From Calditrichia bacterium (lineage in GTDB: Bacteria; Calditrichota; Calditrichia; RBG-13-44-9; J075): DNA of 64,000 nt. The notes under the pieces are model-generated. The model was given only the letters and a program-made list of their open reading frames with translations. It ran no database searches and was not told the DNA's origin. Location: NCBI GenBank assembly GCA_050633245.1, contig JBOEGD010000018.1, forward strand, positions 188,084-252,083, read 5' to 3'. The position numbers and the translations under genes were made by a program. Positions 8,091 through 64,000 of the stretch are shown here, in pieces. Position 1 is the stretch's first letter, and every line of letters starts with the position of its first letter.

Positions 8091-8097
8091 AGGAACT

Positions 8098-8448: not shown

Positions 8449-8461
8449 AAGGCTGAATACT

Positions 8462-8971: not shown

Positions 8972-8978
8972 GGGAACT

Positions 8979-10325: not shown

Positions 10326-10363
10326 CAGGAATATTTATAACCTTAAGGATTGAGGAAAATAAA

Positions 10364-11245: not shown

Positions 11246-11271
11246 TCTGATTGGAACCGGGAATTGCAAAA

Positions 11272-12168: not shown

Positions 12169-12194
12169 ACTTAATCGGGAGTAAAGAATACAGC

Positions 12195-14220: not shown

Positions 14221-15182
14221 AGACGGCTGTCGGAGGATATTTTGAGCTAACGCTACCTCATCGTCAGGATTATCATCAGCGGGCGTTGAAATTGAACAGT
14301 GCGCGTAATGCGCTGCGTTATTATCTGGCACGAAAAAAAATCGATAAAATATTCCTTCCTTACTACATCTGCGATTCTCTTATCGAAGGACTGCGCAAAG
14401 ATGGTGTAGAGTGCAGCTTTTTTAAGATCGACACGTTTCTCAGACCGATTCTACCTGCAGGTATTCATGCAAGAAAACCGGCACTAATCGTCAATTATTT
14501 CGGACTTAATATCTCCGATTCTGTCGAAGAAGAGCATATCATAATCGATAACTCTCAAGCCTTTTTTACTCAACCTGCGCGAAAAACAATTTCTATATAC
14601 TCCCCAAGAAAATTCTTTGGGCTTGCCGATGGTGGATTTCTGATTGGACAAGAGATGCATAGAGCGAAGCTTCGCGCATCGGTGTCATGGGAGCACTATC
14701 AGGCCCCACTCATGCGAATTGAGTTACCGGCGGATGAAGGACTTTCGGCGTTTCGAAGAAATGAAAGGCGTCTCGCAAACGAACCGATTGCAGCAATGTC
14801 CCCTCTGACGGAGACGTTGTTGAAGAGCATCGATTACGAAGATTGTCGTAAGAGAAGAGAGTATAACTTCTCATGCTTACATCGGCGTTTAAAACACATT
14901 AACCAGTTAGAAATTACTGATGAGGAACCGAAGGGGCCCCTGGCTTATCCGTTTTTATTCAACCGTCCCGGATTAACGGAATGGTTACGCCGGCAAAGAA
15001 TTTTTTGCGCGGCCTACTGGCCTGGGGTTTCAGACCGCGCGGCGAATAATAGCTGGGAAGCAAAGCTGGCGGCCTGCCTTACTCCTTTGCCGATAGATCA
15101 TCGTTGGACTGATTCAGATATGTCCAGAGTCTGTCTTGCCGTTGAAGCATTTCTTGCAAAAACCGGAGAAGAACATGTTTAA
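14217..15182 (+). CDS. Short, divergent DegT/DnrJ-like PLP-dependent protein
   Basis: GGYFEL...NSARNAL...PYYIC...NYFG...IIDNSQAF...YSPRKFFGLADGG; C-terminal LPIDHR. Confidence 0.7.
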   Translation: MKTAVGGYFELTLPHRQDYHQRALKLNSARNALRYYLARKKIDKIFLPYYICDSLIEGLRKDGVECSFFKIDTFLRPILPAGIHARKPALIVNYFGLNISDSVEEEHIIIDNSQAFFTQPARKTISIYSPRKFFGLADGGFLIGQEMHRAKLRASVSWEHYQAPLMRIELPADEGLSAFRRNERRLANEPIAAMSPLTETLLKSIDYEDCRKRREYNFSCLHRRLKHINQLEITDEEPKGPLAYPFLFNRPGLTEWLRRQRIFCAAYWPGVSDRAANNSWEAKLAACLTPLPIDHRWTDSDMSRVCLAVEAFLAKTGEEHV

Positions 15183-16452: not shown

Positions 16453-16454
16453 CA

Positions 16455-44400: not shown

Positions 44401-45192
44401 AAGTGCGACCCCTTTATATAAGACATTATTTTTCAGGTAGTCATCTGCTTCACTGCGAAACGGCTTGAAAGATCGACCGTTATAGATAAATAGTCCGCTG
44501 CCGAATGTCCCGACAAGAAGATCTTTCGAGCCATTTGAGAACGGTAGAAGCGTTTGCAGGCGATCCCGGGCAAGGAATTCACTGCCTTTAATCATTTCAA
44601 GCTTATCGTTATTTAGTCTTTTTAAACCAATACCACCTTCAACAACAAAAACTGTGTTGTTTTCATAGAAGGCGTACATAATACGGCGTTCGGCAGGCCA
44701 GGAAGTAACTTTCCATGGAGTCGCCGATCCGTCACTATTAGGCGTAAATCGATAAAGCATGTCCATTGTGGCGAAGTAGATGCCTTCAGGAGTTGACAAT
44801 GTGCTCCAGACATAGTTGAAGCCTTTTTCATTTTCGGGGAGAAATTCCAACAGGGAGTGAAAACGAAGTTTGTCCAGCGAGTCGGCCTCAAGATAGCCAA
44901 AATCACCGGAACAGCCTGCGAAAACACGTCCATTTGCGTCTACGGCAAGTGACCGAACCAACGATCCGTTTGCATTGGGAATCATGCGCCAGTTTCGGCT
45001 GTCATATTCCAGGATTCCCGGCAAATTACCGACGTAGATAAGCCCGTCTGCAGCCTGAACGATGTCCCAACTCTGAGTGTCTCCGTGGTAATCTGTACTG
45101 CTGTAAGACTGGTACAGGGGAAGCATCTCATCGGTGGGTTGCGCCGTAACAAGCATTGTCAGACACAGCAAGATCCAGAATTGTTTACGCAC
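41452..45192 (-). CDS. Sensor histidine kinase: periplasmic beta-propeller + Y_Y_Y, TM, GAF, HisKA, HATPase
   Basis: [14 protein letters not shown] (Y_Y_Y), [58 protein letters not shown]. Confidence 0.92.
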
Positions 45193-45207
45193 GTTTCCCT
45201 TCTCTCC

Positions 45208-46368
45208 TTATGCCAGATAGCGCAACGCAAGCACCGTTCGGTCATCCGACTGTTCTGCGTTTCCGGCAAATTCTTCAACATCTCTGAATAGCGCTGCAAT
45301 GCAGCTCTCACAGTTGGCTGCCTGATTCTTCTTCAAGCTCTCGATCATTTGATCCTCACCAAACTCATCTTCCGCCTCATTAAAGGCTTCACTAATGCCA
45401 TCTGTAAACAAGATTAGCATTTCATTTGGCTTTAGCATCATGGAGCCTTCCTTAAACGTTGCCATCGGCATACCGGCAAGCATGATTCCACCAGTATTCT
45501 CAATCTCGGTAACCTCGCCGTCTGCGGAAAGTAACATCGGCGGATTGTGTCCGGCACTGCAATAATCGACCTTCCCGGTTTCAACATCGAGTATGCCAAA
45601 AAAGAGTGTGACAAACATTTCGATAACGCTTTCGACACAAAGGCTTTTATTGATCTTTTGAAAACAAGCTGCCGGGGAAAGCCCGGTAAGAGCTGTTGCC
45701 TTAACAAAGGTTCGCGAAACGGCCATAAAGAGAGCAGCGGGCATGCCTTTCCCGGATACATCTCCAATTGCAAAACCCAGGCGAGTCGGTGTTATCCAAA
45801 AAAAGTCATAGAAATCTCCGCCTACTTCCCTTGCCGGTTCCATGCGGGCATGAAGGTCAATTTCCGGTCTTTCGGGAAAGGGAGGGAATTCTCTTGGAAG
45901 GATCGTTGTTTGAATGCGATTGGCAACATCCAGCTCATAGCGCAGGCCGAGCAGCTGTTCTTCCTGTTGTTTCGCTGCTTTACCCTCGTCTACTGCACGT
46001 AGTGTCTTGGCGAGAGTTAGACCAAGATCTTCCAAATCGACAGGCTTGGAGATGAAGTCGAACGCACCATGATTGAGTGCTGTTCGCACGTTTGCAGTAT
46101 CACCGTAGGCAGAAATCATTACGGTGCGAACAAGCGGATAGCTCTCATTAATGCGAGCCAGCAGTGAGAGTCCATCCATTTCAGGCATGTTAATATCGGA
46201 CAAAACAACGTAAATATCAGCGAATTGCTCTAGCTTTTTTAGAGCTTCGCGACCATTACGAGCAAACTCAAATGTATATAGTTTATCGCGAATCTCCTTG
46301 CGGAAATTCATGGTAATCAGCAGTTCGAGATCCGCTTCATCATCGACAACAAGAATTCGAGAGGACAT
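45208..46368 (-). CDS. Response regulator with PP2C/SpoIIE phosphatase output (RsbU-like)
   Basis: ILVVDDE...SDINMPEMDG receiver; VGGDFYD, GDVSGKGMPAA, AGHNPP, FTDGISE, DDRT. Confidence 0.92.
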   Translation of the reverse strand: MSSRILVVDDEADLELLITMNFRKEIRDKLYTFEFARNGREALKKLEQFADIYVVLSDINMPEMDGLSLLARINESYPLVRTVMISAYGDTANVRTALNHGAFDFISKPVDLEDLGLTLAKTLRAVDEGKAAKQQEEQLLGLRYELDVANRIQTTILPREFPPFPERPEIDLHARMEPAREVGGDFYDFFWITPTRLGFAIGDVSGKGMPAALFMAVSRTFVKATALTGLSPAACFQKINKSLCVESVIEMFVTLFFGILDVETGKVDYCSAGHNPPMLLSADGEVTEIENTGGIMLAGMPMATFKEGSMMLKPNEMLILFTDGISEAFNEAEDEFGEDQMIESLKKNQAANCESCIAALFRDVEEFAGNAEQSDDRTVLALRYLA

Positions 46369-46385
46369 GATATGTACCTTTATGG

Positions 46386-46772
46386 CTAATTGCTGAAAAG
46401 GTCAGTTTTCAGACTGTCGAAGTCGATTGGTTTGGTGAAATATCCATCGCAGCCCAAGCTGCTGGCGCGGCTAAAGTGCACATCTTTGCCATATGCAGTT
46501 ACCATAAACACCTTCAGGTCTGCATAGTTAGACTTTACTTTTTGCAGAAGCTCCAGCCCGTCCATTTCTGGCATGTTGATGTCTGAAAGAACAATGCTAA
46601 ATTCATGCGGGTCATGTTGCTCTAAAAAGGTGAGCGCCTCTTCAGCGGAGTTGAAAAAATCTATGCTGACAAGCCCTTTCTTTATCTCGCTGCGAAAAGA
46701 CAGGCGATAGAGCAATTGAACATCCGGTTCGTCGTCTACGACCACTAAGCGCACGAGACCTCCAGGAAGCAT
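46386..46772 (-). CDS. Single-domain response regulator
   Basis: VVVDDE, SDINMPEMDG, VTAYG, TKP. Confidence 0.88.
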   Translation of the reverse strand: MLPGGLVRLVVVDDEPDVQLLYRLSFRSEIKKGLVSIDFFNSAEEALTFLEQHDPHEFSIVLSDINMPEMDGLELLQKVKSNYADLKVFMVTAYGKDVHFSRASSLGCDGYFTKPIDFDSLKTDLFSN

Positions 46773-49083: not shown

Positions 49084-49388
49084 AATAAATCAGCTCCAAA
49101 AAGAAAAACACGACCGGAATAGTCGTATTTCAGAGGATAATACTTTCCTTTTTTTGAATTTGCAACTTATTTGTCTACTAATACAGTTTGCGCTGAAAGT
49201 CACTAAAATGCAGATGGACTTGTTCATCTGCTTTACATCGTTTATTTCCGCGGTTTTAATCTACAGCGGATTCCATTATCCTCTGGCAAAAAGCTTTTCT
49301 TTTTCAGATAAACCCTTTGCAATATTTCTAATGATCGGTTGTCCAATAAAAAAGTACTGTAGTTTATTGTGTGTCTATATCAGAGAGG

Positions 49389-50198
49389 ATGCTGTACATG
49401 TGTCGATTAAACTTTCATAAACAAGTCTGTATCTATGCAATAACCGTTGCATTGTCGCTTATTTCATTAAGCTGTTCTTCAAATAAACACGTTGCGGGAA
49501 CATGGAATCCTGAACCACTTGTTGTCGATGGAAAAGGTGCAGAGTGGGAAACACTTTCAACGTCATATAATGATAAAATTGGCGCTGTTTACGGTGTGGT
49601 CAACGATGAATCCGGTATTCACGTAATGGTTCGTTTTAATGATGCTCGAACTGTTAGACGCATAAATCGTTTTGGAATGGTGCTCTGGTTCAACAGCGGA
49701 GATTCCAAAGATAGTCGTCTTGGGATTCGCTATGCTTCTGAAGACCGTGCATTTAGTGATAATGTCGAGATACCACGTAAACGAAATGACGTTAGTGAAA
49801 ATAAACCTGTTCAGTTAAAAGGCATCTACAGCGTTATCGATACAGATACAACGTTGATTACTGCTGCTCGCAATCGGGCAATATCTACTGCCGCTGCCAG
49901 CGATAATGGTCTTTATTGTTTCGAGGTCTCAGTTCCGTACTCTTTTGGCGAGAAGTTCAACAGCAGCCCGGGAGAGACAATCAAGTTGGGAATTGAACTT
50001 TCCGGGATGCCGAAAGAAATTCGCGAGCAGATGAGAGAACGCATGAGTGCGCGTAGAGGTGGTGGCCGGGCGGGTGGCGGAGGCGCACGTGGTGGTAGGC
50101 CCGGAGGTGGAAGGGCTGGTGGCAGTCCGGAAGGCAGAAGGCCGGATTTGGAAAAAAAAGACGTTTGGATCAATTTGAATCTTGCACAAAGACCTTGA
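49389..50198 (+). CDS. Hypothetical lipoprotein with Gly/Arg-rich C-terminal segment
   Basis: Lipobox-like ISLSC after a hydrophobic stretch; VVDGKGAEW; RRGGGRAGGGGARGGRPGGG; start uncertain (49371-49398). Confidence 0.65.
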   Translation: MLYMCRLNFHKQVCIYAITVALSLISLSCSSNKHVAGTWNPEPLVVDGKGAEWETLSTSYNDKIGAVYGVVNDESGIHVMVRFNDARTVRRINRFGMVLWFNSGDSKDSRLGIRYASEDRAFSDNVEIPRKRNDVSENKPVQLKGIYSVIDTDTTLITAARNRAISTAAASDNGLYCFEVSVPYSFGEKFNSSPGETIKLGIELSGMPKEIREQMRERMSARRGGGRAGGGGARGGRPGGGRAGGSPEGRRPDLEKKDVWINLNLAQRP

Positions 50199-50742: not shown

Positions 50743-51555
50743 TTGGCAAGATTGCAATCCATATATTTTGCTGAAACGATCCTTGGGGGACATGTGTCTG
50801 TAGCTGCCGCTGGAAATCTTGACTGGTCTGGCTCTGCTCCGATCGAGATGCCGGATTCGAAAACCGTACATCTTTGGCGAGCAACGCTTAATCCAACTGA
50901 GTCACTTCTGGAGAAGCATCGCAATATTTTGCGACCGGAAGAACTTTCTCGCGCTGCCAGATTCAAGTTTAATCGTCATCGCAATTCGTATATCACCGCA
51001 AGATCTCAATTGCGTCGACTTTTAAGCCTGTATCTTTCTGTCCCATCTGAAAAAATTGAGTTGCTGACCACTATTCATGGGAAGCCATATGTTCAATCGC
51101 CCAAATTACCAAAATTGCAGTTCAACCTTTCGCATTCACACGATCGGGTTGTTTATGCAATTGGCTCTACTTGTGATCTCGGAATTGACATCGAGTGGAT
51201 TAAGCCGGGCTTTGCCGACAGCGGAATTCCGGAGCGATTTTTTTCCTCTTCGGAAGTAGCGGCCTTACGCAGTGTCTCACTCGGGAAACAGGCTGAAGCA
51301 TTTTTCAACTGCTGGACGCGCAAGGAAGCTATCATCAAGGCAATAGGGCAAGGGCTCTCTCTACCGCTAGATGCCTTTGATGTTTCTCTTAAACCTGGTG
51401 AGCCGGCACGCGTTTTGGATATGCGAATTCCGCAAATTGATCAAGAATTTTGGCAAATTTGGGATATAAACGTCGATACTAATTACAAAGCTGCTCTGGC
51501 GCTGCAAGGGGATGTTGCACACTTGAGAAGTTTTGACTGTGACTTAACTCTATAA
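50743..51555 (+). CDS. Sfp-type 4'-phosphopantetheinyl transferase (likely start GTG 50794 or ATG 50848)
   Basis: HGKP, FNLSHS, LGIDIE, FFNCWTRKEAIIKAIGQGL. Confidence 0.92.
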   Translation: MARLQSIYFAETILGGHVSVAAAGNLDWSGSAPIEMPDSKTVHLWRATLNPTESLLEKHRNILRPEELSRAARFKFNRHRNSYITARSQLRRLLSLYLSVPSEKIELLTTIHGKPYVQSPKLPKLQFNLSHSHDRVVYAIGSTCDLGIDIEWIKPGFADSGIPERFFSSSEVAALRSVSLGKQAEAFFNCWTRKEAIIKAIGQGLSLPLDAFDVSLKPGEPARVLDMRIPQIDQEFWQIWDINVDTNYKAALALQGDVAHLRSFDCDLTL

Positions 51556-51660: not shown

Positions 51661-54600
51661 TTGTCTAAACTATCAAAAAAGCATTTTACTTATCTGAATA
51701 CGCTGAATAAGACGAATACGTCTATCGAACATACCACCTTTGCTCAGGATCAGATCGCCGAATTCGCTGTAAAATTTCCGAATCGTATTGCTGTTGAGAG
51801 CCTCAACGAGTCGCTCAGCTATAAGCAGCTTATGTCGCGAGCCGATCGAGTTGCCGCGGTACTGCGGAGCAATGATGTATCAGCTGGCGACTATGTCGGT
51901 ATCTGGATGGAGCGATCTCCTCAAATGGTAGTGGCGATTCTTGCCATTCTACGCGTAGGTGCTGCTTACGTCCCGTTAGATCCCGTCTATCCCGAGAAAC
52001 GTCTTCATTTTATCCTTGAGGATACGGCCTCAAAAATTGTTCTTACCGAAAGCCGATTCAAGCAGCAGCTTGAAAAGAAATCCCTGATAATTATTTGTGA
52101 AGATGATCTGCCGGAAGAGAAACATCTGAGTACCTCACTGCCGAAAAATTATAACTCTGCGAACCCTGTTTATATTATTCATACCTCCGGTTCTACCGGA
52201 ACACCAAAGGGCGTGCCGGTTAGCCAGCGCAACCTACAGCACTCAACCGCAGCTCGGGCAGAATATTACGATGGCCAGGTTGAAAAATTTCTTCTACTTT
52301 CCTCATTCTCGTTCGATAGCTCGGTAGCCGGAATTTTTTGGACGCTTACTCAAGGCGGAACGCTCTGTCTGCCAAAGTCTGGTGTTGAGCAGGATGCCCA
52401 TCGTATAGCAGAACACGTTAAATATTTTAAGCCAACACATATGCTTGCGCTGCCATCGCTGTATGCGTTGATTCTGGAGCAAACACAACCTGCGCAGCTA
52501 AACTCGCTAAAACATGTTATTGTTGCAGGCGAAGCCTGCCCACCAGCTCTCTGTCATCTTCACGCGCAAAAATTGCCAGAAACACGACTTTACAATGAAT
52601 ACGGACCAACAGAAGCATCTGTTTGGTCTACTGTATTTGAGATATCCAAAGGGTTCGACGGTGACATAGTTCCAATTGGAAAGCCAGTTGCGAATACCCG
52701 GGTATTCATTTTGAATGAGAAGCTTGAACCTGTTGCACAAGGCGAAGCCGGAGAACTGTATATTGGTGGAGAGGGCGTAACCGGTGGTTACCTAAATCGC
52801 GACGAATTGACTATTGAACGCTTCATAAAAGTACCCGCGCCTCTTGCTGACTATTTGCAGGAACATCAGCGTAATGCGATGCTCTATCGCACCGGCGACA
52901 AAGTGTTATGTAATTTCGATGGCTTCCTGGAATTTCACGGACGCGTCGATCAGCAGATCAAGCTTCGTGGGTATCGCATTGAGCCGGGTGAGATTGAAGC
53001 TTGTTTACAAAGTGTTAACCTTGTCACGGAAGCAGTTGTGTTACTTCGCGAAGATCGCCCCGGTATTAAACGCTTGGTTGGCTACGTGCTGGCAGGTGGT
53101 AAAAAGCCGGAAGCAGTAGAACTGAGAGCGCATTTACGCAAGTCGCTTCCCGACCATATGGTTCCAACCAGCTTTATGATGCTCGATGAGTTCCCGCGAA
53201 TTCCCAATGGCAAAGTTGATCGAAACGCATTTTCTGCTCCCGATCGTGGTCGGCCGCCTCTGGAACAAGCCTATGTTGCTCCGCAAAACGAGCTGGAAAA
53301 ACAGCTACACAAACTATGGTGCGATACGCTGGATCTGGAAGAAATCGGCGTTAACGACCCATTTTTCGATCTCGGTGGGGATTCGCTTTTGGCGGCGCGA
53401 TTTGTTGGCAACCTGCAACAATTGCTGGATGAACCGATTTTTGTAGTCACATTATTCTCAGCACCGACAATTTCTACTTACGCGTCCTTTTTGCTACGTG
53501 ACTATAAAAAGAGTGTAGCACGTTGGCTTGGCATAAGCGATTATGATTCTTCGACAGATCCGAAAAAACATACTTTACAAGATGATGATCTGAAACGATT
53601 TCAGTCAATCATCCCAACGCTCTCACTAGAAGCATCGGCATCTGAAGATTCAAAAAAGAATCCACGTGCCATGTTCATTCTGGCGCCACCTCGATCCGGA
53701 ACGACGCTTCTACGTGTGATGCTTGCCGGACATCCACAACTATTTGCCGCAAATGAACTGCAGCTGTTGGGATTTCAAACAATGGCAGAGCGCAGCAAAG
53801 CGTATTCTGGCAAATTTTCTCTTTGGCTGGATGGACTTATTCGCACCGTAATGGCGTTGCAAAACTGCACGGCCGATGAAGCTCGCAGCATTATCGCAGC
53901 TTATGAACAGCAGGGATTTACCACGCAACAAATGTTTGGTCAGCTTCAGGAATGGATTGGTGAAGCTATTCTTGTCGATAAATCTCCTCAGTACGCGCTC
54001 GATGTTAATGCCCTGCACAAGGCAGAGAAGGACTTTGCCGAGCCGCTATATATTCAACTGGTGCGTCATCCCTACGCCATGGTGTCTTCCTTCCGGAAGC
54101 GACGGATGGAGCAGGTTGTGTATTTAGATGAACATAGTTTCAATGCGCGGGAAACCGGCGAGCTGGTTTGGCTGGAAAGCCATCGTGTAGTTGGAAACTT
54201 CTTAAAAGATATTCCATCGAACCGAAAAGTTGTACTGCGTTATGAGGATTTGGTAACGCGCCCTAAGGAAGTGCTTCGTGGACTTTGTGATGCCTTCTTT
54301 CTGCCATTTGATGAAGCAGTTTTAAATCCATATCACAATTTAGATAATAAAATGATTGATGGTGTGTATTCTGATTCCACTCCAATGGGCGATCCAAAAT
54401 TTATGGAGCAGCGAGGCATTAATCCTGCGCTGGCCGATTCCTGGAAAGGCGTCGAAAAGGACAACTTTTTATCAGATATGACCTGGAAGCTGGCTGAGTC
54501 TCATGGATATGAGCGGCCAAAAACATCGATTCCGGTTAGTAAGTCGATCAGCTCTTCCACAGGTGATATTGCAATTGTGGGGATGGCTGGACGTCTTCCC

Positions 54601-57600
54601 GGTGCAGATTCTATAGATGCCTTTTGGGACAATCTTAAGCAGGGGATAGAGGCAATACAACCGCTTTCAGATGAGGCGCTGCTTAGCAGCGGTGTTGACA
54701 TCGAGACTCTGAAAAACCCGCTTTATGTTAAGGCTGGTGCGAGTGCAGCTGATATTGCCGGTTTCGATGCTGGTTTTTTTGGTTTTCACAAGCGCGAAGC
54801 GGAGATGATGGATCCGCAGCATCGCATGTTTCTTGAGGGGGCATGGTCTGCTCTTGAGCATGCCGGCTACGATCCCGAACGATATGAAGGCGATATCGGC
54901 GTCTTTGGTGGCGTTGCACGCAATAGCTATCTGACGGCAAATATGTTGACGCATCAGCAATACCGCGAGGGCGTTGGTGAATATATCAGCACTCTGGGAA
55001 GTGAAAAGGATTTTCCCGCTACCAGGGTTGCGCACAAGCTAAATCTGCGCGGTCCGGCTATGTCTGTGCAGACGGCTTGCTCTACTACAGGTGTTGCCAT
55101 TCATCTTGCGTCGCAAAGCTTACGCTATGGCGATTGCAATATGGCGATTGTCGGTGGCTGCCGTGTTCAGGTGCCGAATGACGTAGGGTATTTCCATCTG
55201 GAAGGTGGCCCACTGTCACCCGATGGACATTTAAGAGCATTCGATGCCGCTGCAAAAGGCATGGTAAAAGCAAGTGGTGGTGCGTTTCTGGTGCTTAAGC
55301 CGCTGGCTGACGCGCAGCGTGATGGTGATACCATTCACGCCGTTTTAAAAGCCAGCGCAATCAATAATGACGGATCGGATAAAGCCGGATTTACTGCGCC
55401 AGGTGTTGCCGGGCAGGCGAGAGTGGTACAGCAGGCAATTGAGCGTGCCGGCGTTTCTCCTGAAACCATCGGATACCTGGAAGCACATGGCACTGGAACA
55501 GTTCTTGGTGATCCCATCGAGGTCGCCGCGCTTACCAAAGCCTGGCGAAAACATACTGATAAAAAAGAGTTCTGTGCACTCGGCTCGGTTAAAACTAATA
55601 TCGGACACCTGGATGCCGGAGCGTGTGCGGCGAGCGTTATTAAGACAGTACTCGCACTTCAGCATAAAAAAATTCCTGCAAATCTACATTTTAATTCTCC
55701 GAATCCGCAGCTGGATTTGCCAAACAGCCCATTTTTTGTAAACAACTCGCTAATAGATTGGCCGGCGGCCGAGCATCCGAGACGAGCCGGAGTAAGTTCA
55801 CTCGGACTTGGTGGTACCAATGCACATTTAATTTTGGAAGAAGCACCTGAAATAGAGGCTGTTCCATCCGAAAGAAAGTCTTTTTTGCTGGTTGTATCTG
55901 CACGTACGGAAGTGGCATTGATGGCTGCGAGAGTAAATCTTGCAAACCATCTTGAGAGACATCCGGAAATCAATTTAGCAGATGTCTCTCATACGCTGCT
56001 TAATGGCCGAAAACTTTTTGATGAACGAGCCGCATTTGCTGTAGAAAGTCATGAGCACGCCGCTCACCTATTGCGCAATGCTGCTCCGCATCAAATGATT
56101 CGTTTAACTCAGCCTCGTATCGAACGACGAGTTGCCTTCCTGTTCGCCGGTGGTGGTGCTCAATATTTGCGCATGGGACAAGATCTTTATCAGGAAGAAC
56201 CGACATTCCGTGAAGCGGTTGACCTTTGTGCCGAAATTTTACGGCCACTGATCGATCGCGATATTCGCGAGGTTCTTTTCCCATCGGTGACAGATAAAGA
56301 TGATGATGCCTCGAAGGGGATGGAAACACCTTCATTGGCTCTTCCCGCACTCTTTACGATTCAATTTGCGTGTGCAAAGCTATGGATGTCCTGGGGCGTT
56401 GCGCCTACAGCGATGATCGGTCATAGCATGGGCGAATACACCGCAGCCTGTTTAGCGGGCGTCTTTTCATTGACTGATGCACTTGCTCTTATCACGCTGC
56501 GCGGACAGCTTTTCGAAACGCTTGCTGCCGGATCTATGCTTAGCGTTCCGCTGACAGAAAATGAACTTACGACTCATCTCGGCAACGACCTTTCTTTTGC
56601 CGCAATAAACCGTAGCGACTCCTGTGTGGTGTCCGGACCAACTCCGCAAATTAAAGCGTTACAGCAAAAACTTGAATCCAATGACATTGAGTGCACACTA
56701 CTGCGTATATCGGTAGCGGCTCATTCTGCGATGGTTGAACCTATTTTGGCACCCTTTCGCAAGTTTCTTGAAGGCGTGACGTTTAATGCGCCTAAGCTTC
56801 GCTTCGTATCCAACCTTAGTGGAACCTGGATTACTGCGGAAGAGGCGAAGAACCCTGACTATTGGGTAAAACATTTGCGCCAAACCGTGCGCTTTGCCGA
56901 TGGTCTTTCCTGTTTACTTCAGGATGAGCAGTGTGTGCTCCTCGAAGTTGGGCCGGGACGAACGCTTAGCTCGTTTGCCCGCCAGCATCCGGCTAAGAAA
57001 GATACGCACATCATAGGGTCCACCCTGAGACACCCACGAGAGCAGGTGCCGGATTTACCCTTTTTACTAAATAATGTCGGACTGTTATGGGCAGCAAATG
57101 CTGCTTTAAATTGGCAAGAATTTTTGGGTGCAGGCCGTCGTCGTGTGCCGCTACCGACATACCCTTTTGAAAGAAAACGATACTGGATTGAACCACTTAT
57201 TAACGCAGCATCGATAAGCGATGATAGCAGTTCAGGGATAGAAACTATAAGCGTTACAGAGGATCAAATTGTGACAAATCAACCGAACATACCGCCCCGC
57301 TCAGAGCGAATCGGTGACGAGCTTCAGCGAATTATCCACGAGTTGAGCGGTGTAGACATGAAAGCGATCGCCCGCGATACCAGCTTTTTGGAGCTCGGCT
57401 TCGACTCGTTGTTCCTGACGCAAGCTAACTCGGCGTTCCAAAAGCTGTTTAAAGTAAAAATTTCGTTCAGGCAACTTTTTGAAGAGGCACCCACAATAAA
57501 TATGCTTGCTGCCTTCATCGACCAAAAAATGCCAGCAGATGCTTTTCCAGCGCCAACGCCGGAACCTGTTGCAGCACCGTCTGCACCAGCTGCGCCGATG

Positions 57601-60600
57601 GCGCAGCCTACCGCTATTTCCGATGCGCCTACTGCGCAAATCGCCATAACCGCACCGGCAGGAAGTGTGCAAAATATAGTACAGCAGCAGCTGCAGCTTA
57701 TGCAGCAACAGCTTCAGCTCCTTGGTGGAGCACCAATTGAGGCAGTAGCTTCTGTTGCACCAACACAGGGAAATACACTTGCTCAGGAAGCATCTGGTGC
57801 CGGTAAATCAGCAACTACTACCACTCCTTCAGCACCACCCGCTGAAGCTAAAAAAGGTGATGGAGCTGCGCATGGTCCCTGGAAGCCGGTTCAGCGAAAA
57901 CGTGCCAGTGAGTATACCGATCGCCAGATTAATGCGCTGGAAAAACTGATTATAGACTACACCACGAAAACACGTGGTTCTAAGGAACTCACAGAATCGC
58001 AGCGTCCACGTTTAGCCGATCCGCGGGCGATATCAGGATTTCGACATGTCTGGAAGGAAATGATTTATCAAATTGCCGGTGTGCGCTCGAAAGGATGCCG
58101 CGTTTGGGATATCGATGATAATGAGTATATCGATCTAAATATGGGATTTGGCATCAATTTCTTTGGCCATTCTCCGGATTTTGTGATTAAAGCGATTGAG
58201 GAGCAGCTTGCAAAGGGAATCGAGCTTGGTGTTTTAACGCCACTGGCTAAAGACGTTGCCGAGTTGATCTGCGAGCTAACCGGAATGGAGCGAGTTAACT
58301 TTGTGAATACCGGCTCTGAGGCCGTATCGGCGGCAGTTCGTGCGGCACGTACTGCTTCCGGCCGCGATCGGATTGCGGTTTTCCGTAAGGACTATCACGG
58401 AATTTCCGATGAGCTTCTGGTTCGTCCGGTAGACCTGGGCGGCAAACGAATTTCCAAACCTGTTTCTCCCGGTATACCAGACTTCTTGGTTGAAAACGTT
58501 ATCATACTCGATTATGATGATAGCTGTATCGACGTTATTCGTGAACATGCGGATGATCTGGCTGGCGTGATCTTTGAGCCTGTTCCGGCACACGATCCTG
58601 CATTTCAGCCACGCGAAATTATCCACAAAGTACGTGAGGTAACGCGCGAACTTGATATTGCCATGATATTTGACGAGCTGATCACCGGATTCCGACTTCA
58701 CCCTCGTGGTGCACAGGGATTCTACGATGTCGATGTTGATATCTGCGCCTATGGAAAAATTGTCTGTGGTGGTTTGCCGATGGCAGCAGTAGCCGGAAGT
58801 GCAAAATATATGAATGCTTTTGATGGTGGTCTATGGCAGTTTGGAGACGATTCTTATCCTGAAGGCGGAGTAACATTCTTTGGCGGAACTTTTGTTCGAC
58901 ATCCGCTATGTCTTTCCAGCTCGAGGGCTGTGTTACAAAAAATGGCCGATAATGGTACAAAGCTGCACGATGACCTGAATGCTAAAACGGCTGATTTTTC
59001 AAAAAAGGTGAACGCGATCTTCAAACGTCTCGAAGTTCCTATGGAAATGGTCACCTGCGCCTCAATGATACTTATCCGCTTTATAGAAGACGGCCCGTTT
59101 AATCCGTTGTTTTGGTTTTTTCTGCGCCTGAATGGCGTTCTTTTCCGTGACCGTTCGGGCTTTCTATGCGTCGACCATTCAGAAGAGGACTTGAAAGAAG
59201 TGCTTAACGCGATCGAAAAGTCGGTGCTGGATATGAAAGCTTCTGGTTTTGTACCGGGGCAGGATCTGGGGGAAGACGAAGCCGCTGCAATTGCCCACCT
59301 CAATGGCAACTCAGATAGTATGTCGCTTACGCCTTCACAAATGGAAATCTGGTTGGCAAGTCAGCTCGGAGAAAAAGCCTCCTGCGCATTTAACCTGTCC
59401 TCAAGAATTTCTCTTCAGGGAGATTTTGATATTTCTCTTTTACAGAAGGCTCTGGACGATCTATGTGGGCGCCATGAGGCGCTTCGCACAACCTTTCAAG
59501 CCGATGGCGAAAGACAGATTGTTGCGCAGGCGATAAAGCTAAAGCTGCCGTTTACCGATCTCTCTGAGTTAGATCGCAGCACCTCGGAAGAAGTACTGCG
59601 TGAAATGTGCGAAGAAGATGCCCGTACGGCATTCGATTTGGAAAATGGGCCCTTGGTTCGTTTTCAGGTCATTCGATCGCGCCCGAATCAACATGAAATT
59701 ATTGTTACAGCCCATCATATTATTTGCGATGGCTGGTCTTTTGGCATCGTTTTAAAAGATTTGGCTGCACTTTATTCCGCTCATGAAATGGACGGATACC
59801 CAAGCCTTGAAGCGCCGCTACAGTTTCGCGATTTTGTAGCTATCCGCGATGAAAACCTGGAAATTGTGGGAACTGCTTCCTCCGATTTCTGGCATGCACG
59901 CTACGCTGAAGATATTCCTGTTCTCGAACTGCCAACGGACAGACCCAGACCGCGAACGAAGTCTTATGTCGGTGGCTATAAGCGAAAAACACTCAGTTCT
60001 GAGCTCTTTTCGAAAATTCAGAAATTGGCTACGGAAAAGCGCAGCACCACTTTTGGTGTGTTAATGGCTGCGTATGGTGTATTGCTTAGTCGATTGTCCG
60101 GTCAGGAAGATGTTGTGGTTGGCTTAGCCGCTGCGGGGCAAACGGCAATTGGCAAAAAGGAAGTAGTTGGGCATTGCGTAACGCTACTGCCAATGCGCTT
60201 GCAGGTGCCGTGGAAAAACAGCTTCTCCTCCTATTTTGATCAGGTGAAAAGCGAGCTGATGGAAGCCTATGATCACCAGGATTATACCTTTGGCGATTTG
60301 CTCTCTTCGCTTGGTGTAGATCGGGACCCATCTCGTCTTCCATTGGTGTCGACAATGATTACATATGAAACCGGTTCAGAAAAACTACACTTTGGCGACT
60401 TGAAAACAGCAATTTGCCCTAATCCCAAAGGATACTGCAATTTTGATCTGGAGCTGTACCTGATGGAAGATAAGGGCGAGTTGACGCTGCGCTTTGAATA
60501 CAATTCCGATCTATTTGATAGCAACACTATCGACCGCTGGCTGTCTCATTACAATACCATCCTTGAAGCGGCCTGTTCTAACGTTGATGAAGAAATTGGT

Positions 60601-62505
60601 CAGCTGCCGTTAATTGCCACGTCAGAGCTGCATCGCATGCTGTACGGTTGGAACGATACGTTGATGACTTATCCTGCTGAGCGTGGATTGCATGAAATTT
60701 TCGAAGAGCAAGTTGACATGTTGGGAGCAACAACCAAGGCAGCCGTTTTTACAGACGGTTCGGGAAAATCGACGTCTCTGACGTACTCTGAGCTCGATGA
60801 ACGATCGAATCGACTGGCAAACTATCTTGTTAAAAATGGAATGCGGGCGGGAGATTTTGTCGGAGTCTATTTAAATCGCAGTCCGAAAATGCTTATCAGC
60901 TTATTGGGAATTCTAAAGGCTGGCGCAGCTTATGTACCTCTCGATCCCTCTTTCCCGAAAGATCGCGTCAGCTTTATGATCGAAGATTCCGGTATGACAT
61001 TTATCCTTACCACATCCGACCTTGCTGAAGATATTCAACAGTCGGCAGTTACTGTGGTGCAAGTAGATCAGGATGCGCAAAAAATATCCCGTGCTGCCAA
61101 GAGACGTAAAAAACTGCCTATCGACCCGGAACGCCTTGCCTATCTGATATATACATCCGGGTCTACCGGTAAACCGAAAGGCGTGCAGATTGCCCATCAC
61201 AGCGTGGTGAACTTTCTGATGACCATGGCGACTGAAAGACCTGGCATGACGCGAGACGATGTTCTACTTGCGTTAACAACAATTTCATTCGACATTTCGG
61301 TTCTGGAGTTATTCCTGCCCCTTTCAACCGGAGCAACTGTTGTTGTTGCGCCATCTGATACCCAACAGAATGCTACCAAAATATCCAAGCTTCTCGAAGA
61401 GCATAACTGCACAATGATGCAGGCAACACCCACGAATTGGGCGATGCTTTTTGAAGCGGGTTGGAAGGGCAAAAAGGGACTTAAAGCGCTTAGTGGCGGC
61501 GAGGCTTTGACGCCTGAGCTCGTAGGCAAACTCTTGGAATCCTGTGGAGAGGTTTGGAACATGTATGGCCCGACGGAAACGACAATCTGGTCTTCGGTAA
61601 GCAAAATAGAGTCTGCTCTAGAGGCAATTACAATTGGTTCACCAATTGGAAACAATTACCTCTATGTTCTGGATAAAAATAGAAATCCGCAGCCGGTTGG
61701 CGTCCCGGGAGAACTGTATATCGGTGGACGGGGCTTAGCCGTTGGATACCTGAACAGAAAAGACCTGACCAACGATCGCTTTGTAGACGTTCAGCTTCCC
61801 GGAGAAATGAAGCTACAGCGATTGTATCGCACCGGAGATTTGGTACGATGGACCGTGAATGGCGAACTTGAATTTGCCGGGCGGATAGATCATCAGGTTA
61901 AGCTGCGTGGCTATCGCATTGAACTCGGTGAAATAGAGAGTCTGCTCAATGAAATTCCGGAGGTCGATCGTGCAGTTGTAGCGGTAAAAGAATGGGGGCC
62001 GGGCGATCGCAGACTTGCCGCCTACGTCTTGAAAACAGCTGCTAACGGATTTCAACTTGATAGAGCAAAGGATCATCTTCGAAGCAGATTACCGGAATAT
62101 ATGATTCCCTCATCAATCGTTTCGGTAGACACATTTCCACTAACGCCGAATGGTAAGATTGATCGCAATGCCCTGCCGCTTCCCGGTTTTCAGACAGAGA
62201 GCCATTCGAAAGGCTACACGGAACCACGCAGTGAAACAGAAACTGCATTACAGCAGATTTGGCAGGAGGTGCTTGGCTTTGATAAGATCGGAATTACCGA
62301 TGATTTCTTTGATATCGGCGGACACTCACTATTGGCAACACGTGTAATAATGAAAGTAAATAAACAATTCAATACTGAACTTCTGTTCTCTGCACTTTTT
62401 GAATATGTTACAATCGGTCAATTAGCCGAAGTAATCGATCAAATTGTAAATGAGCAGCAACTTACCATTCCACAGTACGATAATCTGGTGGAAGGGAGTC
62501 TTTAA
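51661..62505 (+). CDS. Hybrid NRPS/PKS: A-PCP-sulfotransferase-KS-AT-ACP-class III aminotransferase-C-A-PCP
   Basis: A1 HTSGSTGTPKG/YGPTE/YRTGD; PCP LGGDSL; ST APPRSGTTLL and RHPYAMVSS; KS QTACS/HGTGT/KTNIGHL; AT GHSMG; ACP LGFDSL; AMT FDELITGFR/YGK; C HHIICDG; A2 YTSGSTGKPKG; PCP IGGHSL. Confidence 0.93.
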   Translation: MSKLSKKHFTYLNTLNKTNTSIEHTTFAQDQIAEFAVKFPNRIAVESLNESLSYKQLMSRADRVAAVLRSNDVSAGDYVGIWMERSPQMVVAILAILRVGAAYVPLDPVYPEKRLHFILEDTASKIVLTESRFKQQLEKKSLIIICEDDLPEEKHLSTSLPKNYNSANPVYIIHTSGSTGTPKGVPVSQRNLQHSTAARAEYYDGQVEKFLLLSSFSFDSSVAGIFWTLTQGGTLCLPKSGVEQDAHRIAEHVKYFKPTHMLALPSLYALILEQTQPAQLNSLKHVIVAGEACPPALCHLHAQKLPETRLYNEYGPTEASVWSTVFEISKGFDGDIVPIGKPVANTRVFILNEKLEPVAQGEAGELYIGGEGVTGGYLNRDELTIERFIKVPAPLADYLQEHQRNAMLYRTGDKVLCNFDGFLEFHGRVDQQIKLRGYRIEPGEIEACLQSVNLVTEAVVLLREDRPGIKRLVGYVLAGGKKPEAVELRAHLRKSLPDHMVPTSFMMLDEFPRIPNGKVDRNAFSAPDRGRPPLEQAYVAPQNELEKQLHKLWCDTLDLEEIGVNDPFFDLGGDSLLAARFVGNLQQLLDEPIFVVTLFSAPTISTYASFLLRDYKKSVARWLGISDYDSSTDPKKHTLQDDDLKRFQSIIPTLSLEASASEDSKKNPRAMFILAPPRSGTTLLRVMLAGHPQLFAANELQLLGFQTMAERSKAYSGKFSLWLDGLIRTVMALQNCTADEARSIIAAYEQQGFTTQQMFGQLQEWIGEAILVDKSPQYALDVNALHKAEKDFAEPLYIQLVRHPYAMVSSFRKRRMEQVVYLDEHSFNARETGELVWLESHRVVGNFLKDIPSNRKVVLRYEDLVTRPKEVLRGLCDAFFLPFDEAVLNPYHNLDNKMIDGVYSDSTPMGDPKFMEQRGINPALADSWKGVEKDNFLSDMTWKLAESHGYERPKTSIPVSKSISSSTGDIAIVGMAGRLPGADSIDAFWDNLKQGIEAIQPLSDEALLSSGVDIETLKNPLYVKAGASAADIAGFDAGFFGFHKREAEMMDPQHRMFLEGAWSALEHAGYDPERYEGDIGVFGGVARNSYLTANMLTHQQYREGVGEYISTLGSEKDFPATRVAHKLNLRGPAMSVQTACSTTGVAIHLASQSLRYGDCNMAIVGGCRVQVPNDVGYFHLEGGPLSPDGHLRAFDAAAKGMVKASGGAFLVLKPLADAQRDGDTIHAVLKASAINNDGSDKAGFTAPGVAGQARVVQQAIERAGVSPETIGYLEAHGTGTVLGDPIEVAALTKAWRKHTDKKEFCALGSVKTNIGHLDAGACAASVIKTVLALQHKKIPANLHFNSPNPQLDLPNSPFFVNNSLIDWPAAEHPRRAGVSSLGLGGTNAHLILEEAPEIEAVPSERKSFLLVVSARTEVALMAARVNLANHLERHPEINLADVSHTLLNGRKLFDERAAFAVESHEHAAHLLRNAAPHQMIRLTQPRIERRVAFLFAGGGAQYLRMGQDLYQEEPTFREAVDLCAEILRPLIDRDIREVLFPSVTDKDDDASKGMETPSLALPALFTIQFACAKLWMSWGVAPTAMIGHSMGEYTAACLAGVFSLTDALALITLRGQLFETLAAGSMLSVPLTENELTTHLGNDLSFAAINRSDSCVVSGPTPQIKALQQKLESNDIECTLLRISVAAHSAMVEPILAPFRKFLEGVTFNAPKLRFVSNLSGTWITAEEAKNPDYWVKHLRQTVRFADGLSCLLQDEQCVLLEVGPGRTLSSFARQHPAKKDTHIIGSTLRHPREQVPDLPFLLNNVGLLWAANAALNWQEFLGAGRRRVPLPTYPFERKRYWIEPLINAASISDDSSSGIETISVTEDQIVTNQPNIPPRSERIGDELQRIIHELSGVDMKAIARDTSFLELGFDSLFLTQANSAFQKLFKVKISFRQLFEEAPTINMLAAFIDQKMPADAFPAPTPEPVAAPSAPAAPMAQPTAISDAPTAQIAITAPAGSVQNIVQQQLQLMQQQLQLLGGAPIEAVASVAPTQGNTLAQEASGAGKSATTTTPSAPPAEAKKGDGAAHGPWKPVQRKRASEYTDRQINALEKLIIDYTTKTRGSKELTESQRPRLADPRAISGFRHVWKEMIYQIAGVRSKGCRVWDIDDNEYIDLNMGFGINFFGHSPDFVIKAIEEQLAKGIELGVLTPLAKDVAELICELTGMERVNFVNTGSEAVSAAVRAARTASGRDRIAVFRKDYHGISDELLVRPVDLGGKRISKPVSPGIPDFLVENVIILDYDDSCIDVIREHADDLAGVIFEPVPAHDPAFQPREIIHKVREVTRELDIAMIFDELITGFRLHPRGAQGFYDVDVDICAYGKIVCGGLPMAAVAGSAKYMNAFDGGLWQFGDDSYPEGGVTFFGGTFVRHPLCLSSSRAVLQKMADNGTKLHDDLNAKTADFSKKVNAIFKRLEVPMEMVTCASMILIRFIEDGPFNPLFWFFLRLNGVLFRDRSGFLCVDHSEEDLKEVLNAIEKSVLDMKASGFVPGQDLGEDEAAAIAHLNGNSDSMSLTPSQMEIWLASQLGEKASCAFNLSSRISLQGDFDISLLQKALDDLCGRHEALRTTFQADGERQIVAQAIKLKLPFTDLSELDRSTSEEVLREMCEEDARTAFDLENGPLVRFQVIRSRPNQHEIIVTAHHIICDGWSFGIVLKDLAALYSAHEMDGYPSLEAPLQFRDFVAIRDENLEIVGTASSDFWHARYAEDIPVLELPTDRPRPRTKSYVGGYKRKTLSSELFSKIQKLATEKRSTTFGVLMAAYGVLLSRLSGQEDVVVGLAAAGQTAIGKKEVVGHCVTLLPMRLQVPWKNSFSSYFDQVKSELMEAYDHQDYTFGDLLSSLGVDRDPSRLPLVSTMITYETGSEKLHFGDLKTAICPNPKGYCNFDLELYLMEDKGELTLRFEYNSDLFDSNTIDRWLSHYNTILEAACSNVDEEIGQLPLIATSELHRMLYGWNDTLMTYPAERGLHEIFEEQVDMLGATTKAAVFTDGSGKSTSLTYSELDERSNRLANYLVKNGMRAGDFVGVYLNRSPKMLISLLGILKAGAAYVPLDPSFPKDRVSFMIEDSGMTFILTTSDLAEDIQQSAVTVVQVDQDAQKISRAAKRRKKLPIDPERLAYLIYTSGSTGKPKGVQIAHHSVVNFLMTMATERPGMTRDDVLLALTTISFDISVLELFLPLSTGATVVVAPSDTQQNATKISKLLEEHNCTMMQATPTNWAMLFEAGWKGKKGLKALSGGEALTPELVGKLLESCGEVWNMYGPTETTIWSSVSKIESALEAITIGSPIGNNYLYVLDKNRNPQPVGVPGELYIGGRGLAVGYLNRKDLTNDRFVDVQLPGEMKLQRLYRTGDLVRWTVNGELEFAGRIDHQVKLRGYRIELGEIESLLNEIPEVDRAVVAVKEWGPGDRRLAAYVLKTAANGFQLDRAKDHLRSRLPEYMIPSSIVSVDTFPLTPNGKIDRNALPLPGFQTESHSKGYTEPRSETETALQQIWQEVLGFDKIGITDDFFDIGGHSLLATRVIMKVNKQFNTELLFSALFEYVTIGQLAEVIDQIVNEQQLTIPQYDNLVEGSL

Positions 62506-64000
62506 ATGAACAACGCCTCTTTTTATGAACTTCTTGCCGACGGCCTGCAGCTATGGCTAAAAGGTGAACAAATTGGTTTTAAAGTATTTCAGGGTAAGCT
62601 ATCACCAGAGCTTCGCGAAAAGCTTGTCGCTGCAAAACCCGACCTTTTGCGGACGCTCTTGCCGGGACGTCGCTATTCACTCTGCTCCTTTCCTCAGCAA
62701 CGGTTGTGGTTTTTGGAACAGTTTGAGGGAGCCAGTCCGGTTTATAATATTCACGCCACGCATATGTTGTGCGGCAAGCTTAATATGTCGGCCCTTCAGC
62801 AAAGCGTCGATCGTCTGATTCAGCGCCATGAGGCGTTCAGAACCTCTTTTCATGCACTGGATGGTCAACCCTATCAGCAAATTCACGATAGCATGATGTT
62901 GCAAATCCCGGTTAAGGACTTAAGTGCTGAGAGCGAAGCGAACCAGCCAGCAAAACTTCAGCAGTTACTGGTTGAAGAGGTAGAAACGGAGTTTGAACTC
63001 GAAACAGCACCGCTTATTCGGGTGAAGCTGTATAAGCTTGCCGAAGAGAAACATGCCTTATTGATTCTTACTCATCATATAATTTTTGACGGCTGGTCGC
63101 TTGGATTAACGATAAATGAATTAAGCGCAAACTACAGTGCGATTTGTGCCGGAGAAGATTCTGAGACCACAATGCCGGGCGTCCAGTACTCCGACCATGT
63201 AATGTGGCAGCGGGAATGGTTCCTTGGAGACGGTGCGCAAAGGCAATTAGACTATTGGACGGAAAAGCTTTCCGGTGAACTTGCTCCACTGGAGTTACCC
63301 TACGATAAGCCGCGCCCACCGATTCAAAGCATCGATGGAGATGTTGAATTCGATCGTTTTGAAGCTGATCTTATTCAGAAAATGTCTGAACGTGCGCGTC
63401 AGGAAAACGTGTCGCTGTTTATGTTTCTTGTAACGGCGGTGAACGTTTTAATCATGCGCTATTCCAATCAGGAAGACATTCTGCTTGGAATGCCGGTAGC
63501 AAACCGCAAACGTAAGGAGGTCGAATCGATTGTTGGATATTTTGCCAATACTCTGGTGTTGCGCAACGATTTATCCGGAAACCCGACTTTCAGCGAAATG
63601 TTACAGCGGGTTCGCGCTGTTTGTCTGGAAGCATTCAATAACGAAGACACGCCGTTTGAGCAAATTGTGGGTGTGCTTCAGCCAGAGCGTGATCGCAGCC
63701 GCACACCAATCTTTCAGGCGATGGTGAGTTACGATGAAACCGCCAGCCACGCCCGAAGTATGGGGGAGTTGACGATGGAACGCCTTTCAGTAGAGCGGAA
63801 GGTCGCTCGAACTGATTTGGCAATTTGGCTGACCAAAGAGTCCGATCATATTCGCTTTGCATTTGAATACGCATCTCACTTGTTTGAGCGCAACACAATT
63901 AAACGACTGGTTGCCGGGATGAAATCCCTTGCTGAAGCAGCTGCCGCCGACACGTCTATCGCCATCAGTGAGCTGCCTGTTATGCCTGCGCAGGAAGAAG
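62506..64000 (+). CDS. NRPS (partial): N-terminal TubC-type beta-hairpin docking domain + condensation domain
   Basis: Absent from the ORF track because it has no stop in the window. ATG directly follows the upstream TAA; translates MNNASFYELLADGLQLWLKGEQIGFKVFQGKLSPELREKL...SFPQQRLWFLEQ...RHEAFRTSF...HHIIFDGWS...LELPYDKPRP. Confidence 0.9.
   Translation, partial: MNNASFYELLADGLQLWLKGEQIGFKVFQGKLSPELREKLVAAKPDLLRTLLPGRRYSLCSFPQQRLWFLEQFEGASPVYNIHATHMLCGKLNMSALQQSVDRLIQRHEAFRTSFHALDGQPYQQIHDSMMLQIPVKDLSAESEANQPAKLQQLLVEEVETEFELETAPLIRVKLYKLAEEKHALLILTHHIIFDGWSLGLTINELSANYSAICAGEDSETTMPGVQYSDHVMWQREWFLGDGAQRQLDYWTEKLSGELAPLELPYDKPRPPIQSIDGDVEFDRFEADLIQKMSERARQENVSLFMFLVTAVNVLIMRYSNQEDILLGMPVANRKRKEVESIVGYFANTLVLRNDLSGNPTFSEMLQRVRAVCLEAFNNEDTPFEQIVGVLQPERDRSRTPIFQAMVSYDETASHARSMGELTMERLSVERKVARTDLAIWLTKESDHIRFAFEYASHLFERNTIKRLVAGMKSLAEAAAADTSIAISELPVMPAQEE

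Follow-up and report, generated by a model that had tools for sequence, protein, structure and literature searches.

Among assembly lines that combine nonribosomal peptide synthetase (NRPS) and polyketide synthase (PKS) modules, the MycA-type proteins of mycosubtilin and iturin biosynthesis, along with McyE, build a β-amino acyl unit through a run of ketosynthase (KS), acyltransferase (AT), acyl carrier protein (ACP) and aminotransferase (AMT) domains that continues into condensation (C), adenylation (A) and peptidyl carrier protein (PCP) domains. Here we describe a megasynthase gene from a Calditrichia bacterium (assembly GCA_050633245.1) that displays this same KS-AT-ACP-AMT-C-A-PCP run, including the class-III aminotransferase between ACP and C as judged by Pfam, and that would likewise be expected to join a β-amino acyl unit to the next amino acid. 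Whereas MycA is primed by a fatty-acyl ligase, the first domain here is an amino-acid A domain with Asp235, so that priming comes neither from such a ligase nor from a polyketide chain made upstream, and a sulfotransferase (ST) domain has been inserted between the starter carrier and the KS. The gene is an open reading frame (ORF) of 3614 amino acids with zero internal stops (positions 51661–62505, + strand) in a 64,000-nucleotide stretch of contig JBOEGD010000018.1, which we refer to throughout as the window.

Sulfotransferase domains have also been met in other assembly lines. CurM reportedly has the order KS-AT-KR-ACP-ST-TE (KR, ketoreductase; TE, thioesterase), in which sulfation of a β-hydroxyl group is said to set up decarboxylative olefin release, and OciA, the first NRPS protein of a Planktothrix cyanopeptolin synthetase, is reported to have a built-in ST domain (PMC2533009). 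OciA reportedly pairs that domain with a glyceric-acid-loading domain for O-sulfation and has no KS or AMT, whereas the present line has an A domain, a KS and an AMT. The β-hydroxyl sulfation carried out by the CurM ST is described in PMC7327777. Sulfonation of nitrogen is represented by SulN of the SulN/SulM system of sulfazecin (monobactam) biosynthesis, which effects N-sulfonation of a PCP-bound amine using 3'-phosphoadenosine 5'-phosphosulfate (PAPS), the same chemistry that we propose below for the ST studied here (PMC11298585, which in addition charts NRPS clusters containing a sulfotransferase domain). SulN, however, acts in trans on the β-amine of a terminal diaminopropionate (Dap), after which a Cys-TE closes the β-lactam; the present line lacks both a Dap code and a SulTE-like TE, and it goes on to extend the chain further.

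Each part of the present protein thus has known relatives, and it is the combination, PCP-ST-KS with an obligatory AMT, that we have not found in print. Literature searches returned no characterized pathway or product for an A-PCP-ST-KS...AMT cassette, and among the matches listed none names both a sulfotransferase and an aminotransferase domain in an NRPS. Nor did they return anything on carrier-bound O-sulfo-threonine, and N-sulfonation appeared only for monobactams. The interest of the locus lies in this uncharacterized cassette and not in its specificity codes, which are ordinary annotation and correct: a CurM-type ST is fixed between starter carrier and KS, always in the company of an aminotransferase domain, while the starter amino acids are interchangeable.

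The best overall explanation, to which we give a little less than even confidence, is a histidine-primed hybrid line with an N-sulfonating ST, glycine modules and release by hydrolases. The starter domain A1 would load L-histidine on PCP1, and the ST would sulfonate the free α-amine of this carrier-bound residue, giving an N-sulfo (sulfamate) starter. The KS and AT would then add a two-carbon unit, with malonyl-CoA as the presumed extender, and the AMT would turn the 3-keto group into an amine, leaving a 3,4-diamino-5-imidazolyl-pentanoyl unit. A2 would supply glycine, to which the C domain would couple this diamino unit; two or more Gly modules would come after it, and a conserved pair of α/β hydrolases would probably free the product. 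The sulfamate might serve as a protecting group, an idea of our own, stopping the 4-amino-3-oxo thioester from cyclizing onto itself. Domain order, codes, ST homology and conservation of the cassette are direct observations; the chemical steps, with the extender unit, the acceptor atom and the mode of release, are inferred.

Domain organization and specificity codes

All domains of the megasynthase, A1-PCP-ST-KS-AT-ACP-AMT-C-A2-PCP, lie on the + strand, and the ORF has a TTG start preceded closely by a GAGGGG box. A1 (51748–53295; Pfam AMP-binding) is followed by PCP1 (53338–53565; Pfam PP-binding), whose GGDSL motif includes Ser575 (codon 53383–53385), and then by the PAPS-type, CurM-like ST domain (53623–54540; PF13469, Sulfotransfer_3, 3.5e-25). 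The KS (54565–55692; Pfam ketoacyl-synt, 8.1e-66, and Ketoacyl-synt_C) has its Cys in QTACST and both His motifs in the translation; the AT (56137–56985; Pfam Acyl_transf_1, 4.1e-44) has GHSMGE; and the ACP (57301–57531; Pfam and motif GFDSL) leads into an Ala/Pro/Gln-rich linker. Beyond the linker come the AMT, a class-III pyridoxal phosphate-dependent aminotransferase domain (57991–59160; PF00202, Aminotran_3, 5.8e-40), the C domain with HHIICDG (59311–60627; PF00668, 6.4e-91), A2 (60739–62157; Pfam AMP-binding) and PCP2 with GGHSL (62245–62436; Pfam and motif). Because the three phosphopantetheine-bearing serines, the KS Cys/His/His set, the AT and C motifs and the ST motifs are all kept, the gene looks functional.

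No C domain precedes A1, which marks it as a starter module, and the ORF begins only 105 nt past a 4'-phosphopantetheinyl transferase (PPTase) gene directly upstream (50743–51555, +; Pfam ACPS, 1.4e-17, and AASDHPPT_N, 9.3e-13). An earlier note on this DNA had called A1 a starter, and the label holds.

We read both specificity codes from motif anchors, namely FDxS, the P-[ST] turn, the G-E of motif A5, NxYGPTE and PxGKxDR, with pocket positions in GrsA numbering. The A1 pocket consists of D219, S220, A223, L262, I287, A289, E313, V321, W322 and K518, or DSALIAEVWK (codons at 52315–52320, 52327–52329, 52444–52446, 52519–52521, 52525–52527, 52597–52599, 52621–52626 and 53212–53214, +), and that of A2 of D3211, I3212, L3215, Q3254, L3277, G3279, M3301, I3309, W3310 and K3499, or DILQLGMIWK (codons at 61291–61296, 61303–61305, 61420–61422, 61489–61491, 61495–61497, 61561–61563, 61585–61590 and 62155–62157, +). 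The code positions need such anchoring because both domains carry loop insertions ahead of position 322, with seven extra residues between positions 278 and 322 in A1 and three in A2; a no-gap count from Asp235 runs into these insertions, returns the nonsense codes DSALLHPYG and DILQKLVET, and was rejected.

The register of A1 can be checked against LgrA module 2, to which it aligns without a gap over the stretch from FDxS to position 278 in a HMMER alignment. The columns used for A1 return DIANLCIIYK for that module, which is the Gly(1) code printed for LgrA in Table S7 of PMC12283262. The least secure residue is that at position 278, which two MAFFT runs put in adjacent columns, changing it in 185 of 205 codes (186 when a change at any position is counted), and for LgrA module 1, with an indel near this position, the HMMER columns give S where the table prints Y. 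L262 of A1 stands because its spacing to both flanks equals that in A2 and in LgrA module 2. For the family-wide classes used below, the second MAFFT run had shifted the position-278 column, so all of its class labels except His were discarded and the earlier alignment was reused. The earlier note, whose span of 51740–62180 covers A1 motif 1 to the Lys517 of A2 (62155–62157), had taken the A1 string from the peptides FDSSVA, HMLAL, VIVAGE, NEYG and SVW, and had raised the danger that its alignment was off-register. The motif-anchored reading finds the same peptides and reproduces both strings exactly, and the comparison with LgrA module 2 and its published code upholds the register.

The A2 code is one residue away from the canonical Gly code DILQLGLIWK. 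In PMC12283262, DILQLGMIWK is itself the code of four glycine-activating domains, so that the glycine call made earlier for A2 rests on an exact published code, and A2 very probably loads glycine. For A1, the note had suggested a resemblance to His or basic-residue codes, which understated the case: in Table S21 of the same source, DSALIAEVWK is His(1), borne by 7 of the 14 His domains, and A1 matches this commonest published His code at ten of ten positions, which is not a chance event. The other His codes given there are DSELTAEVCK, DSPLIAEVWK and DSQFIGQVVK. A1 is an ordinary ANL-type A domain, identical to these His(1) domains in its ten pocket residues, and its equivalents of Asp235 and Lys517 (D219 and K518) are as expected for an α-amino acid substrate. 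The same code is found in a second NRPS of this genome (contig C19), in a 62%-identical orthologue that we call P0070, and in five further ST-carrying representatives, each standing for clusters of less than 50% identity. On this pocket, A1 is predicted with good confidence to activate L-histidine and to load it on PCP1 as the starter.

It is improbable, and distinctly so, that A1 instead loads some other substrate, such as a modified histidine or a different amino acid. Codes are only predictive, the tabulated His domains belong to elongation modules of peptide siderophores and lipopeptides while A1 is a starter followed by ST and KS, and the genome's second His-coded A domain shares only 46% identity with A1. 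Set against these points are the full match to the dominant published code, the presence of Asp235 and Lys517, and the persistence of the code both in P0070, at 61% identity over the A core, and in the five more distant representatives.

The sulfotransferase domain

Residues 655–960 match the CurM ST (PDB 4gbm) at E 1e-63 and the OLS ST (4gox) at 5e-57, with protein-tyrosine sulfotransferases giving far weaker matches. The domain keeps the PPRSGTT loop (676–682), Glu699, Lys774 and RHPY, for which catalytic roles are reported from the CurM ST structure. Like its CurM and OLS homologues, with which it shares the PAPS loop, Glu, Lys and RHPY, this ST follows a carrier protein. Its surroundings otherwise differ from the KR-ACP-ST-TE context of CurM, since a KR and a neighboring TE are both absent, the carrier holds an amino acid, a KS follows to give the order PCP-ST-KS, and the motif beside the catalytic Glu reads ELQLL, with A697 and Q701.

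A full HMMER search with the ST domain gave 3819 representatives at an E value of 0.001 and 1111 at 1e-30. We examined 159 proteins with 167 ST domains, these being the best 150, the window protein (P0001), seven proteins from an earlier homologue search, and the homologue from a complete genome of the same family (G008). In a FastTree phylogeny built from the ST domains, P0001 and P0070 branch together (support 99) inside a clade of 41 rows (support 95), whose members have an N-terminal A-PCP-ST followed by a KS wherever the protein is long enough; 15 of the 41 rows are fragments without an A domain. The PPRSGTT loop, Glu699, Lys774 and RHPY are kept in almost every one of the 167 aligned ST domains. 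The loop Arg and Ser are present in 40 of the 41 clade rows and in 125 and 124, respectively, of the 126 others, Glu699 in 41 of 41 and 123 of 126, and Lys774 in 41 of 41 and 124 of 126. Two positions flanking the catalytic Glu set the clade apart: Q701 occurs in 34 of 41 rows, as opposed to E in 101 of the 126 others, and A697 in 78% of rows, as opposed to P in all 126. To judge from this homology and these motifs, the ST very probably works as a CurM-type, PAPS-dependent sulfotransferase that acts on a carrier-bound intermediate.

Identities to P0070 are 61% for the A1 core, 69% for the ST, 77% for the KS and 93% for the AMT, and those to G008 are 33% for A1, 49% for the ST and 62% for both KS and AT. 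Because A1 lags so far behind KS and AT in the second comparison, the A domain appears to have been swapped in a single lineage, either that of this gene or that of G008. Such an exchange invites the thought that the ST is an inactive relic, left behind when a Thr-type A domain gave way to a His-type one. We regard this as highly improbable: every cofactor and catalytic motif is kept, the pairing of a His code with an ST recurs independently, and the ST is more similar to that of P0070 than is the A1 core, which points to constraint on the ST in the His lineage.

A conserved cassette and candidate sulfonate acceptors

The clade is held together by its architecture and not by its starter. ST, KS and Aminotran_3 domains occur together in nine of nine long clade members scanned, with an AT in eight of the nine, and P0001 contains every element of this unnamed cassette, A-PCP-ST-KS-(AT)-ACP-AMT, together with Q701 and A697. 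The starter codes, on the other hand, are diverse, comprising His (5), Thr-like (4, with G008), Ser-like (2), Ala-like (2), Gly (1) and other codes (12). Since the cassette is constant while its starters vary, and include side chains without a nucleophile, the ST acceptor should be a group shared by all of them, that is, an amine. Because the ST follows PCP1, just as the CurM ST follows its ACP, we put the α-amine first; as a specific assignment of the acceptor, the free α-amine of the starter is our leading candidate but a tentative one, falling short of even confidence. The earlier note had named the α-amine or the imidazole as the likely target; the comparative evidence leans toward an amine common to all starters over the imidazole. 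Behind the α-amine we rank the β-amine made by the AMT and the hydroxyl of a β-hydroxy-histidine, then an imidazole nitrogen, and last a vestigial domain.

The compact loci recovered from metagenomes show the cassette at its simplest. At L034 a single 3906-aa gene encodes A-PCP-ST-KS-AT-ACP-AMT-C-A-PCP-TE and is followed by a PPTase gene, with no tailoring gene beside it, and at L036 the same line is split after the ST. No His code was found before an ST among the 48 metagenome loci. Members of this smallest kind, one gene and a PPTase, would be convenient for heterologous expression. Two starter codes that match no nameable code recur in the cassette, DVL[LM]NSL[IV]NK in P0139, P0147, P0155, P0157 and L034, and DG[LY]LSAQVGK in P0132, P0135, P0141 and L030.

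The generalized form of the proposal, in which the ST N-sulfonates the α-amine of any primer as a built-in sulfamate protection against tetramate formation during assembly of the vicinal diamine by KS and AMT, the sulfamate then being kept or removed at release, is more speculative, and we would call it somewhat unlikely as it stands. Were it true, it would give CurM-type STs a new role and amino-acid-primed PKS lines a new protecting-group logic, and the product here would be a diamino acid derived from His and bearing a tail of Gly-Gly-Gly. Sulfonation of an amine, at whichever position, would extend assembly-line sulfation beyond hydroxyl activation and would supply a handle for finding products (34S, and a neutral loss of 80 Da).

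For the family as a whole, we counted an A domain as upstream when it lay within 480 residues of the ST, which applies to 107 ST domains (108 with G008). The upstream codes are Thr-like in 25 (26 with G008), Ser-like in 17, Tyr-like in 8, His in 7, diaminobutyrate (Dab)/Dap-like in 5, Gly in 3, Ala-like in 2 and other in 40, the His and Dab class codes being those in Table S21 of PMC12283262. By analogy with sulfazecin (PMC11298585), the Dab/Dap-coded modules before an ST fit N-sulfonation. Counted by its starred branches, the ST tree gives the His label before an ST at least three origins.

Several of these observations, and some others, weigh against the N-sulfonating, histidine-primed line that we favor. 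CurM and OLS, the characterized relatives of the ST, sulfate a hydroxyl and not an amine. Family-wide, hydroxy-amino-acid codes dominate among the ST neighbors, which fits O-sulfation, and the Thr, Ser, Tyr and Ala class patterns behind this count are canonical codes. Within the clade, Thr- and Ser-like codes make up 6 of the 26 coded members, among them G008 and G012, the genomes nearest to this one, so that an O-sulfated ancestor is possible. The Ala- and Gly-coded starter proteins, on which the argument for a shared amine draws, are contig-edge fragments, and 62 of the 164 forks in the ST tree are unsupported. In one protein, P0192, a His-ST module is internal, and its α-amine is already acylated. 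The selectivity motif of the AT, VAAHS, matches neither the HAFH nor the YASH textbook class (a rule given in PMC7327777), and the number of Gly modules is taken from a collapsed repeat, not from assembled sequence. A code match, finally, predicts a substrate and proves none, and DSALIAEVWK is used by β-hydroxy-histidine modules as well, being listed as β-OH-His(1) for GlmG, HcsF and HcsI in Table S21 of PMC12283262.

This last point, with the prevalence of hydroxy-amino-acid codes, the homology to CurM and the fact that Thr-S-PCP, the starter in the same-architecture proteins of G008 and G012, is a β-hydroxyacyl thioester, makes up the case for a different route, one absent from the earlier note, in which an unlinked enzyme β-hydroxylates PCP1-bound histidine and the ST O-sulfates the new hydroxyl as the CurM ST does, the sulfate then being retained in the product or used as a leaving group. 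The cluster parts seen here, however, contain no hydroxylase candidate; the 97%-complete genome has no TauD-family gene, diiron and cupin hydroxylases not having been searched for; and both P450 genes of the genome are on other contigs. O-Sulfation of this kind would also leave the Ala- and Gly-coded clade starters and the single-gene cluster L034 unexplained. We consider it an unlikely alternative.

The constancy of the aminotransferase raises a second question, that of timing. If the ST acts later, on the 3-amino group installed by the AMT while the chain is bound to the ACP, or elsewhere on the chain after extension, its adjacency to PCP1 would be architectural only. Aminotran_3 accompanies the ST in all nine of the long clade members, as in P0001, P0070, G008, L034 and L036, a β-amine would be a target common to all starters, and an N-sulfonated β-amine is the key monobactam intermediate (PMC11298585). 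Stand-alone A-PCP-ST proteins, on the other hand, end directly after the ST, as in L045 (1032 aa) and L036 (1029 aa). CurM-type STs, by analogy, serve the carrier just upstream. A later-acting ST seems to us about as improbable as O-sulfation of β-hydroxy-histidine.

Were the imidazole ring nitrogen of PCP-bound histidine the acceptor, the pairing of His with ST in 7 of 107 modules, with its several origins, would find a ready explanation, as would the internal module of P0192, where the α-amine is unavailable. The ST of P0192 could, however, act on another residue of the tethered peptide, an imidazole target offers no common explanation for the other clade starters, and N-sulfo-imidazoles are labile sulfuryl donors. 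Sulfonation of the ring is in our estimation very unlikely.

Downstream modules and related genomes

The window ends where its contig (C18) ends, and the next NRPS protein, which opens with TubC_N docking and C domains (62506–63999, +; Pfam), runs off that edge. Contig ends in this assembly share 22-base overlaps by which C18 leads to C38, C38 leads to either C48 or C19, and C48 leads back to C38; this pattern identifies C38 as a collapsed repeat used at least twice. C38 (1303 bases) encodes an A domain with the Gly code DILQLGMVWK. On C48 the last part of an A domain and a PCP precede a stop, beyond which lie docking and C domains; C19 opens with an A-domain end plus a PCP, and two α/β hydrolase genes come next. 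The assembly thus breaks inside near-identical Gly modules, and along the path C18-C38-C48-C38-C19 the line would read His-C2(NH2)-Gly-Gly-Gly at the least, followed by the two hydrolases.

No TE domain was found in the cluster parts, and the only codes there are His and Gly. The two hydrolases show a weak likeness to TIGR03101 and TIGR03100, below the cut-offs of these models, and as free-standing α/β hydrolases they are probably what releases the product. The complete genome G008, of the same family, offers a parallel: its megasynthase, A(Thr code DFWNIGMVHK)-PCP-ST-KS-AT-ACP-AMT-C-PCP, is succeeded by a docking-C-A-PCP protein and then by a hydrolase pair that is collinear with, and 40% identical to, the pair on C19. 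The G008 megasynthase (2982–12269 of locus L020) ends in C-PCP without an A domain; loading of this last PCP has to occur in trans, and the protein that follows may supply the A domain for it.

A whole-family search of 16 genomes turned up no His-coded orthologue of the megasynthase, the best matches being the Thr-coded proteins of G008 and G012 at 41%. A scan of genome contigs with A1-PCP-ST gave only two distant NRPS loci, at 37–39% identity.

Neighboring genes

Past the hydrolase pair, C19 (2525–20000 of locus L003 and 253–5450 of L004) carries genes for HupE/UreJ, a 522-aa polytopic membrane protein, ornithine cyclodeaminase, acyl-CoA dehydrogenase, free-standing A and PCP domains and a TonB-dependent receptor, and then an NRPS whose A domains have Asn (DLTKIGEIGK), His (DSALIAEVWK) and Gly codes. 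Their membership in the same cluster was considered and rejected because they have no counterparts beside the G008 cluster, and we treat them as a neighboring cluster, which may be a second, metallophore-like one with a pyrrole-type starter. The 522-aa ORF was set aside as a hydroxylase candidate on account of its polytopic membrane character, and so was a 275-aa ORF upstream of the PPTase gene (49371–50198), which has a lipoprotein-like N-terminus, a Gly/Arg-rich tail and no Pfam or NCBIfam family match.

Just upstream of the cluster region, at 41452–46772 (– strand), lie genes for a hybrid sensor kinase (Reg_prop/Y_Y_Y, GAF), a response regulator-SpoIIE phosphatase fusion and a single-domain response regulator. 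Farther away, a row of flagellar genes (3980–11245: FlgF/G-like, FlgA, FlgH, FlgI, FlgN, FlgK and a flagellin-family protein) is followed, over 11251–24232, by a GNAT gene, two free-standing PF13469 sulfotransferases (12195–13226 and 13210–14220), a DegT-type aminotransferase and a 2135-aa methyltransferase/TPR/sulfotransferase/GT2/GT1 fusion. The bacterium is Gram-negative and flagellated, and its FlgI is closest, at 58–60% identity, to entries from Caldithrix and Calditrichota. Taken as a whole, this region (3980–24232) looks like a flagellin-glycan island with sulfation.

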